The notes below the pieces were generated by a model. It saw only the letters and a program-made list of their open reading frames with translations, did not search any database and was not told where the DNA came from. A stretch of 64,000 nt of DNA from Candidatus Pacebacteria bacterium CG2_30_36_39. Lineage in GTDB: Bacteria > Patescibacteriota > Microgenomatia > UBA1400 > PJMF01. Made by a program: the position numbers and the translations under genes. How positions within the stretch are numbered: position 1 is the first letter of the stretch; each line of letters opens with the position of its first letter. Below, in pieces: positions 49,612 to 51,770 of the stretch. The stretch is taken from positions 137,789-201,788 of the forward strand of contig MNZB01000003.1 in the NCBI GenBank assembly GCA_001873435.1, written 5' to 3'.

Positions 49612-49685
49612 TGGGTGTACTACGAATCGAACGTAGGACCTCTGTCTTATCAGGACAGCGCTCTAACCATCTGAGCTATACACCC
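49612..49685 (-). tRNA. tRNA-Ile (anticodon GAU). CCA not encoded.
   Basis: rc gives GGGTGTATAGCTCAGATGGTTAGAGCGCTGTCCTGATAAGACAG...GGTTCGATTCGTAGTACACCCA. Anticodon loop CTGATAA. Confidence 0.8.
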
Positions 49686-50038
49686 AAAATAATAACCAGT
49701 ATTGTAACATGCTCGGATATTTTTGCTATCTGAAATTTTCTTTTTTCTATTGTAAAACCTTGAGGTTGTTTTAGAAATAAACTTTGTATTGTTGTTAGAT
49801 TTTTTTATTAAAAATTATTAAAAAATTTTCAATAAAAAACTATCCTCTTTCCTATGAAAAATATAACCCTATCTATCAAATAATATCAAAGTATATCATA
49901 TAAAAAATAATGATATATCAATATATATTTTATAAACTAGCAATTAGCAGAGTTTGCCATTGTCTGCTAATGACCTATATTGTATTGACTATTTTAGTGA
50001 TGAATCAGGATATTATTTAATAATAGAGTAATTAAATA

Positions 50039-50070
50039 CAAAAAAACCCTCAGTACTGAGGGTTGGTTTT
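50039..50070. terminator. Strong intrinsic terminator within the 16S to tRNA-Ile spacer
   Basis: Perfect 16-nt palindrome ccctcagtactgaggg. On the minus (rRNA) strand it is followed by TTTTTTTG. Confidence 0.6.
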
Positions 50071-50245
50071 GTCATCTGCTCTTTTTAAGGGCAGTGAGAC
50101 AGATGTTAACATCAGAATAAATTCTGAGCTAAACACGGTGGTGAAAAATGGCCTAGATATGGTGATCATAGGACTTGTTATTTCGAGAACATTACTGTTC
50201 TCGGGAGAAAGGAGGTCGTGATATCTCCTACCCGTTCTCCTTAGA

Positions 50246-51770
50246 AAGGAGGTGATCCATCCGCACCTTCCAGTACGGATACCTTGTTACGACTTAGTCC
50301 TCATCGCCAACCTCGCCGTAGAAGGGCCGCTCTCCTAAGAGTTACGGTCACCCGCTTCGGGCGTTGCTGACTTTGCTGGCTTGACGGGCAGTGTGTACAA
50401 GGAGCGAGAACGTATTCACCGCAACCTGCTGATTTGCGATTACTACCGATTCCGGCTTCATGAGGGCGAATTGCAGCCCTCAATCTGAACTGAGGAGCCG
50501 TTTTTAGGATTGGCTCAGGGTTACCCCTTTGCGACCCGTTGTCGGCTCCATTGTAGGATGTGTGTAGCCCCAGATGTAAGGGACATGCTGACTTGACGTC
50601 GTCCTCTCCTTCCTCCCCGCCAGAGGCGGGGCAGTCCTGTCAGACACTTGTAACTGACAGCAAGGGTTGCGCTCGTTACCACACTTAAGTGGACGTCTCA
50701 CGACACGAGCTGACGACAGCCATGCATCACCTGTGTACCACTCTCGAAGAAGTTCTGGTTTCCCAAAACGTGCAGGTACATGTCAAATCTGGGTAAGGTT
50801 TTTCGCTTTGTATCGAATTAAACCACATGCTCCACCGGTTGTGCGCTCCCCCGTCAATTCCTTTGAGTTTTAACCTTGCGGTCGTACTCCCCAGGCGGTT
50901 CGCTTAACGGGTTACCTTACGTCACCCACTTTTCCCTGCATACTCTTTAACTTGCATTAAAAATATGCAAAGAAAAGCAGGCAACTAGCGAACAGTGTTT
51001 ACGGCTTGGACTACAGGGGTCTCTAATCCCTTTTGCTACCCAAGCTTTCGTCCCTGAGCGTCAGTGCTGTTTTAGAAGCCCGCCTTCGCGACTGGTATTC
51101 CTCTTGATATCTACGGATTTCACCCCTCCACCAAGAATTCTAGCTTCTCCAAACAGACTCAATCCTTATAGTTTTGCTTGCTGGTCTGAGGTTGAGCCAC
51201 AGGATTAAACAAGCAACTTATAAAGACGCCGACGGAACTCTTTACGCCCAGTAAATCCGGATAACGCTTGCACCCTACGTATTACCGAGGCTTCTGGCAC
51301 GTAGTTAGCAGGTGCTTTCTAGCGAGGTACAGTCATACTTCTTCCCTCGCCACAGTAGTTTACATTCCGAAGAACTTCTTCCCACACGCGGTGTCGCTGC
51401 GTCAGGCTTTCGCCCATTGCGCAAAATTCCCGGTTGCTGCCATCCGTAGATGTAGGTCCCGTGTCTCAGTGACCTTGTGGCCGGTCGTGCTCTCACACCG
51501 GCTACCCGTCATAGGTTTGGTAGGCCATTACCCCACCAACTGCCTGATAGGACGCAGACTCCTCTTATAGCGGCCGAAGCCTTTACCCCTGAGGGAACTA
51601 TATGGTATTACCCCACCTTTCGATGAGCTATTCCTTACTATAAGGTAGATATCTACGCGTTACTCACCCGTCTGCCACTCTCATTACACCCGAAGGTGTA
51701 AATCCCGTCCGACTTGCATGCCTAAGGCACACCGCCAGCGTTCATCCTGAGCCAGGATCAAACTCTCAAA
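50246..51770 (-). rRNA. rrs: 16S ribosomal RNA (~1.52 kb, no large insertions)
   Basis: rc 5' end GAGAGTTTGATCCTGGCTCAG, 3' end GTCGTAACAAGGTATCCGTACTGGAAGGTGCGGATGGATCACCTCCTT. Conserved 16S blocks throughout. Confidence 0.9.

Follow-up and report, generated by a model that had tools for sequence, protein, structure and literature searches.

The canonical bacterial rrn operon is arranged as 16S-tRNAIle-tRNAAla-23S-5S, with boxA antitermination and RNase III stems. Departures from this layout have been described. Brewer et al. (bioRxiv 10.1101/705046) placed Patescibacteria among the clades with exclusively unlinked rRNA genes and also named Rickettsiales for unlinked rRNA, and Lui et al. 2021 (PMC8172020) found that 27 of 34 circularised CPR genomes were unlinked and noted both tRNA and protein genes within the spacers. 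In this CPR arrangement the 16S gene lies far more than 1.5-2 kb from 23S-5S. Both surveys classify by distance and strand only, and the word 'terminator' has 0 occurrences in Brewer et al. (10.1101/705046). Lui et al. (PMC8172020) left co-transcription open and considered that a closer analysis of the spacing would be needed. Unlinked 16S genes of Buchnera, Wolbachia, Borrelia and Mycoplasma are also cited in PMC8172020. For Helicobacter pylori, whose 16S and 23S-5S loci are separate, Iost et al. 2019 (PMC6582327) demonstrated experimentally that the two flanks of a stand-alone 16S precursor pair into a typical RNase III stem.

We analysed a stretch of 64 kb (the window) that contains a 16S gene on the minus strand. 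Rfam and ARAGORN searches detected this gene, a tRNA-Ile(GAU) and, as the sole other RNA gene, a tRNA-Val at 19841-19916. A preliminary description of this DNA had reported a hairpin with a T7 run about 180 nt after 16S, a very AT-rich spacer of about 350 nt, a TACAAT box upstream of tRNA-Ile(GAU) and an MFS transporter gene on the other strand. We found all of these again, and they are listed here with the remaining features on which the analysis draws.

52133..53227, minus strand: mnmA, whose place next to and upstream of 16S is conserved in Microgenomates
52109..52136, minus strand: predicted 16S promoter, TTGACA and TACAAT spaced by 16 nt, the -10 preceded by TG (consensus scan)
51989..52001, minus strand: boxA-like element tGAACATTAACAA in the 16S leader (read from the sequence, boxA match judged by eye)
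51920..51975, minus strand: 5' (leader) arm of the predicted 16S processing helix (30 nt at 83% complementary; cofold)
50245-51773, minus strand: 16S rRNA gene (Rfam RF00177, 1436 bits, model positions 1-1533; full length, without insertions)
50097..50150, minus strand: 3' (trailer) arm of the predicted processing helix (complementarity and cofold)
50040..50064, minus strand: intrinsic-terminator-like hairpin AACCCTCAGTACTGAGGGTT overlapping a T7 run (terminator scan and folding)
49686..50039, minus strand: AT-rich non-coding spacer, 353 nt from T-run to tRNA, 21% GC against 35.5% for the window
49701..49709, minus strand: predicted extended -10 TGTTACAAT for tRNA-Ile (motif class shared by 6 of 7 lineages ahead of this tRNA)
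49611..49685, minus strand: tRNA-Ile(GAU) (Rfam, ARAGORN; CCA not encoded; TTTTT directly after)
48340..49593, plus strand: MFS transporter gene, convergent, ending the rRNA/tRNA region (Pfam MFS_1, E = 4.5e-11)
47421-48332, plus strand: EamA gene, converging on the 16S/tRNA strand (gene call)
2926..3594, plus strand: RNase III gene, rnc (Pfam Ribonuclease_3 and dsrm on the identical gene in locus L033)
2240..2659, plus strand: nusB (Pfam NusB; trans factor for boxA-dependent antitermination)

The lineage of the organism was assessed with MnmA, a protein recorded in 83 blocks of the collection, and with 16S. Among the matches listed from species-representative genomes, the closest MnmA proteins showed 53-57% identity and belonged mostly to Candidatus Pacebacteria, Paceibacterota and Microgenomates MAGs; one close match, L009, is labelled Pseudomonadales. 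The 16S of the window was 82-86% identical to that of L008, L011, L029 and L030, and 75-76% identical to that of the Collierbacteria MAG L013 and of L015. The source contigs come from groundwater metagenomes (SRR1534154 and JGI 3300008094 among them), and mnmA-16S synteny was present in every Microgenomates locus retrieved. Judged by MnmA and 16S similarity and by synteny, the organism is a CPR bacterium of the Microgenomates group.

The elements around 16S follow one another in the order predicted promoter, boxA-like element, 5' arm, 16S, 3' arm and putative terminator. The predicted promoter, with 11 of 12 consensus matches, is the best site in the region and overlaps the mnmA stop codon. 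The boxA-like element tGAACATTAACAA resembles the E. coli rrn boxA, TGCTCTTTAACAA. Similar motifs of the form (C/A)(A/T)TTAACA(A/G) occur in the 16S leaders of L008, L011 and L014 and before the 23S of L012, and the counterpart in the L009 leader is CTTAAACAA. Cofolding of 51920-51975 with 50097-50150 gave 43 intermolecular pairs, and relatives show homologous CACCATG/CATGGTG arms. Thus, a long helix flanks 16S and an RNase III gene lies in the same window, as in an RNase III-processed pre-16S; the helix is predicted to be the usual processing helix, at which RNase III would be expected to cleave. Since the helix stops about 33 nt short of the terminator hairpin, the 16S unit appears closed, with a precursor that is complete without any downstream gene. 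The H. pylori 16S is likewise separate and flanked by an RNase III stem, comparable to the 43-bp helix and RNase III gene found here. However, the H. pylori stem has been demonstrated and that of the window is predicted, the lineages differ, and in the window tRNA-Ile stays beside 16S as what appears to be a unit of its own.

We then considered the hairpin itself. The mature 3' end of 16S, set by the CCTCCTTTCT motif, lies at about 50243, and the hairpin starts 179-181 nt past it. The 16-nt palindrome noted earlier, CCCTCAGTACTGAGGG (50047-50062), lies at the centre of a longer perfect palindrome of 20 nt, AACCCTCAGTACTGAGGGTT (50045-50064), and the last two T of the latter open the minus-strand T7 at 50040-50046. 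The resulting structure has an 8-bp stem with 4 G-C pairs, a 4-nt GUAC loop and T7. The preliminary description had proposed folding of the palindrome as a check; in a context of 61 nt it folded at -16.9 kcal/mol (z = -3.4), a stability that 0 of 200 shuffles reached. The element therefore combines a G+C-rich stem-loop with a U-tract on the transcribed strand, downstream of the gene and at a position that is conserved among relatives. The same hairpin and T-run form was observed at other gene ends in the window, namely at 4427-4443, 18384-18404, 19929-19943 (after tRNA-Val), 25670-25687 and 42586-42608. Because the motif sits at these ordinary gene ends, the organism appears to use canonical intrinsic terminators.

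A perfect palindrome in AT-rich DNA could also arise by chance, or serve the opposite strand, and have no role in 16S expression. Within the 4-kb region, terminator-like sites are no commoner than in shuffles (5 found, 3.6 expected), so that a single hairpin is unremarkable alone, and the palindrome scores on the plus strand as well. We therefore relied on comparison. The comparative set was small, at 12 distinct Microgenomates lineages with 16S 75-86% identical. Its loci were obtained from mnmA-16S synteny among the genome matches listed and, for 7 more loci, from metagenomes by a clade-specific trailer pattern. The 400 nt after 16S were scanned for a stem of at least 5 pairs, at least 3 of them G-C, with at least 6 T among the 8 nt that follow. 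Every stem length was evaluated; the terminator scan applied to the window misses stems that can be extended into flanking A/T runs, as in L011, L012 and L013. Rfam 16S ends, which are wrong where 16S carries insertions, were corrected before scanning. Group II introns of class C, which target terminators, were considered as insertions behind the terminator in L008 and L012; the D1-D4 Rfam matches there, which directly followed the 16S ends as called by Rfam, are insertions inside 16S, because the true 16S 3' ends lie further downstream.

The results showed a hairpin followed by T6-7 in 10 of the 12 lineages, always at +134 to +217 after 16S, with the window at +181. In the same loci, hairpins with a T-tract had a background frequency of 0.21 per kb per strand, which gives an expectation of about 0.08 in 400 nt. 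The terminator scan applied to the window independently confirmed the hairpins of L027 and L008, and the 400-nt scan found no recognisable hairpin with a T-tract after 16S in L028 and L015. About eight largely unrelated stem sequences occurred across the 10 hairpin-bearing lineages, as follows.

Window: CCCTCAG/CTGAGGG
L004/L027: CCACC/GGTGG
L008, L031 and L032: CCATCCT/AGGGTGG
L029: CCTCC/GGAGG
L030: AGCGCA/TGCGCT
L011: CTCACC/GGTGAG
L012: CCCTAC/GTAGGG
L013: CCGC/GCGG

Contig L004 is a chimera, which follows the window organism until about 16S position 1433 and then the organism of L027, an independent contig.

Although the lineages do not count as phylogenetically independent, structure that is kept while sequence turns over is what a functional terminator predicts. 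Position conserved with different stems argues against a chance palindrome. As for the opposite strand, no plus-strand gene reads into the hairpin, given that MFS ends at 49593 and the tRNA lies between, and the plus tail GGTTTTGT is weaker than the minus tail. Overall, a hairpin without a role in 16S expression is very unlikely. The preliminary description had proposed that the 16S transcript ends before tRNA-Ile, and this proposal gains from the comparison, since the putative terminator recurs at its position, with different stems, directly after the 3' arm of the processing helix.

Beyond the hairpin, the spacer contains no ORF longer than 52 aa, and a permissive Rfam search gave sub-threshold Phe leader matches alone (E about 0.5-1), reflecting the hairpin. 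A hidden small RNA or ORF was rejected on these results. A second candidate, in which the spacer is a decayed copy of genes that occupy this slot in relatives (a 178/181-aa ORF and others), was also rejected, as blastn and tblastx similarity was confined to the tRNA and the first 40-130 nt of the trailer.

The TACAAT box lies at 49701-49706, 15 nt upstream of the tRNA-Ile 5' end, within the extended -10 TGTTACAAT. Of 7 lineages, 6 have a motif of the form TGnTA[A/C]AAT 23-46 nt upstream of tRNA-Ile, and in 5 of them it lies at -23 to -26, against an expectation per 45 nt of 0.004 in the loci and 0.014 in shuffles of the AT-rich spacer. The -35 region of this candidate promoter is poor, and the consensus scan made no call there. 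In every lineage where tRNA-Ile was found, it lies downstream of 16S on the same strand, and the gap between the two varied as follows.

L012: about 200 nt, no gene
Window: 557 nt, no gene
L031: about 870 nt, one ORF
L015: 1.8 kb, an opposite-strand PP2C gene
L008: 1.9 kb, one ORF per strand
L013: 2.1 kb, three genes including a formate/nitrite transporter gene with its own promoter and terminator
L004/L027: 3.7 kb, four ORFs

This constant orientation would also fit a different reading, in which termination at the hairpin is leaky or subject to regulation, or the hairpin is a mere 3' stabilising stem, 16S and tRNA-Ile are largely co-transcribed by a boxA/Nus-modified polymerase, and TACAAT is at most a secondary promoter. 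The boxA-like leader element and the nusB gene in the window are in keeping with it, and some antiterminated polymerase could read through. In L012, moreover, the tRNA is only about 200 nt from 16S, and the T-run of the 16S terminator leads straight into the tRNA promoter TGATACAAT, then the tRNA. However, rrn antitermination acts mainly on Rho-dependent terminators, and the hairpin has the same form as the terminators at ordinary gene ends in this genome. In L008 and L015, opposite-strand genes lie between 16S and tRNA-Ile. The L013 interval is filled by protein genes, each with its own promoter and terminator, and its tRNA-Ile is bracketed by terminators on both sides. The extended -10 is also conserved far above chance. 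We therefore consider co-transcription unlikely. Because the extended -10 is conserved, tRNA-Ile is bracketed in L013, the L012 T-run leads into a promoter and the gaps are variable and gene-filled, separate transcription of tRNA-Ile appears, on this comparison, to be the rule in the Microgenomates clade. The preliminary description had likewise treated tRNA-Ile as a separate unit, and the extended -10, the L013 terminators and the intervening opposite-strand genes of relatives point the same way.

Taken together, the comparison makes it likely that 16S forms an independent, terminated transcription unit. While the gene positions, the structures, the lack of 23S and 5S within 79 kb and the conservation across relatives were observed directly, we infer the use of the promoters, the efficiency of termination, the cleavage by RNase III and the function of the boxA-like element. 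Transcription would start at the strong sigma-70-type promoter overlapping the mnmA stop codon and pass through a leader of about 330 nt with the boxA-like element, then 16S and a trailer of about 200 nt. It would stop at the intrinsic terminator (8-bp stem, GUAC loop, U7) about 180 nt past the mature 3' end, and the leader and trailer would pair as a helix of about 43 bp, the expected substrate of RNase III. tRNA-Ile(GAU) would be a relic of the ancestral 16S-23S spacer, now a single-gene unit under the extended -10 TGTTACAAT, and 23S and 5S would be encoded at another locus of the genome.

To locate 23S and 5S, we searched the window with LSU and 5S models and extended the search into contig flanks of 5.5 kb and 9.6 kb. 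No match was found in the 64 kb or in these flanks, which together cover 79 kb of a 272-kb contig (ERZ909571 k127_276368). The stretch without either gene thus extends for about 56 kb downstream of 16S and for about 22 kb upstream of it. A 23S just beyond the window was thereby rejected, as the two flanks hold protein genes and two tRNAs alone. tRNA-Ala was not found in the 64 kb. The preliminary description had placed 23S elsewhere and named a 23S beyond a mis-assembled junction as the finding that would contradict it.

An assembly artefact, whether through loss of a 23S-5S segment or through a chimeric join at conserved rRNA/tRNA sequence, deserves attention here, as chimeric joins inside 16S do occur in this material (L004, near position 1433). 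However, four assemblies that differ in sample and pipeline (ENA ERZ909571; JGI 3300008094, 3300014060 and 3300025129) were 99.99-100% identical through mnmA, 16S, the spacer, tRNA-Ile and MFS to lon. Because these independent assemblies agree across the junctions, mis-assembly is excluded for practical purposes, and we regard an artefact as extremely improbable. The relatives also argue against it. In L008, L027 and L031, lon and a PEGA/SH3 gene come directly after tRNA-Ile, without 23S. The window shares this mnmA-16S-...-tRNA-Ile-lon-PEGA backbone, into which MFS, EamA and a gene of 184 aa are inserted; MFS and the next two genes are absent from L008, L027 and L031. Since all of them share the same backbone lacking 23S, the loss of 23S from the locus is, on this synteny, old within the subclade. 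The absence of linked 23S and 5S that had been described, and their location elsewhere, thus agree with the flanks and with the junctions of the four assemblies.

With respect to the published surveys, the window has no same-strand 23S within 1.5-2 kb of 16S, and the opposite-strand MFS and EamA genes intervene, as in the unlinked arrangement of Brewer et al. and Lui et al. A stand-alone 16S is already documented for the CPR lineage, and the window is a further instance. What is added to a classification by distance and strand is a conserved module of predicted 16S terminator and tRNA-Ile promoter. This module may be undescribed, as judged from a limited literature search.

Compared with a canonical linked rrn operon, the window is alike in its promoter, boxA-like leader, leader/trailer stem and same-strand tRNA-Ile(GAU) downstream. 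It differs in having a predicted terminator before tRNA-Ile and a predicted promoter dedicated to the tRNA, and in lacking tRNA-Ala in the 64 kb and 23S and 5S in 79 kb. Among the relatives, L012 comes closer to the canonical order, as in it alone tRNA-Ala and 23S still follow on the same strand, 4.2 kb after tRNA-Ile. The island between encodes a large serine recombinase, and the tRNA-Ala/23S segment is preceded by a terminator and its own boxA-like leader. Because the module is present even in L012, where tRNA-Ala and 23S are still 4-5 kb downstream with their own boxA-like leader, the 16S terminator and dedicated tRNA-Ile promoter seem, from these loci, to be ancestral in Microgenomates. 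Large serine recombinases abut tRNA-Ile in both L012 and L015. We tentatively suggest, as a possibility that is open to considerable doubt, that the rRNA genes of Microgenomates were first uncoupled in transcription and that this allowed them to become physically unlinked, with the flanks of tRNA-Ile as an insertion slot. If so, these flanks would tolerate cargo genes and integrative elements, and repeated insertion could carry 23S away from 16S.

The preliminary description had called unlinked rRNA characteristic of reduced-genome lineages. This is right as a description, but the trait is clade-specific and not a general result of reduction. Reduced-genome symbionts resemble the window in having a single-copy 16S transcribed apart from 23S-5S and a small genome, whereas they belong to unrelated phyla and represent independent evolutionary events.

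Taken alone, the window is one more CPR stand-alone 16S and of little weight. Its value lies in the construction of the unit at nucleotide level, with promoter, boxA-like leader, processing helix and terminator, and in a module conserved over deeply diverged Microgenomates (16S 75-86%), which would change the description from 'unlinked by distance' to 'separately transcribed by design'. Methods that amplify 16S-ITS-23S will miss organisms with such a layout. The layout also raises the question of how equal amounts of 16S and 23S are obtained without co-transcription.

Finally, we considered and rejected the idea that the GC-skew minimum near 30 kb marks a replication origin, in which case 16S would be head-on to replication. 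The change of sign coincides with the gene-strand switch at 30.6 kb and is therefore explained by coding-strand composition.

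The region directly 3' of tRNA-Ile is occupied by a large serine recombinase gene in two separate lineages of Microgenomates-type relatives, represented by loci L012 and L015, and in L015 the stop codon of the recombinase gene overlaps tRNA-Ile.

L012 16014-17408, minus strand: large serine recombinase with Resolvase, Recombinase and Zn-ribbon domains
L015 16117-17259, minus strand: large serine recombinase with the same three domains

The adjoining recombinases suggest that tRNA-Ile is a target of integrative elements, and such elements may have had a part in splitting the operon. 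In the window, tRNA-Ile and lon are separated by three genes (46878-49593), which encode a 184-aa protein that matches no Pfam family and two transporters, one of the EamA and one of the MFS type. All three are missing in L008, L027 and L031, where lon directly follows tRNA-Ile; the block is a lineage-specific insertion adjoining tRNA-Ile.

The 16S genes of several relatives are themselves interrupted, by insertions of 290-1060 nt, and the window 16S gene carries no insertion.

L008 12246-13219: 16S insertion, at the same site in L031 and L032
L012: 16S insertions at three sites
L011 2966-3272: 16S insertion
L015 13554-14298: 16S insertion

The recurrent insertion site falls within the decoding-centre motif TGTACA|CAC, corresponding to position ~1380 of the window 16S. 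Rfam matches to group-II D1-D4 fall inside the relatives' insertions, and the L011 insertion encodes a GIY-YIG-like peptide. Because the insertions interrupt 16S, Rfam misplaces its 3' ends in these loci.

In the window 16S, the minus-strand segment 50382-50399 reads ACACACUGCCCGUC, with U at the position of the near-universal C1400 of E. coli; this U is common to most relatives, L015 being the exception. The 530 loop at 51282-51300 reads GUGCCAGAAGCCUCGGUAA and carries a C522A/G527U double change, by which pairing is preserved and the site for primer 515F is lost.

Metagenome contig ERZ27293356 k141_66275 (L004) was found to be a chimera, identical to the window organism until about 16S position 1433 and thereafter identical to the organism of the independent contig L027. 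The switch point lies at L004 12888 onward versus window 50341 downward, showing that MAG contigs can switch genomes within 16S.

Within the AT-rich spacer, the stretch 49860-49935 contains a number of short repeats of the TGATAT type together with palindromes that overlap one another, such as those at 49898-49933; neither homology nor function was found for it. A plus-strand gene block at 32000-42000 has a very low GC content (27-33%, compared with 35-39% around it). Near 30 kb the GC skew changes sign at the point where the genes switch strand (30.6 kb), and no evident origin is marked there. Pfam matches also outline a conserved gene cluster on the upstream side of mnmA, which resembles a peptide-modification or amino-acid-ligase module.

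Window 53254-56448: MATCAP-family peptidase, ATP-grasp (ATPgrasp_ST) and 7TM transglutaminase-associated membrane protein
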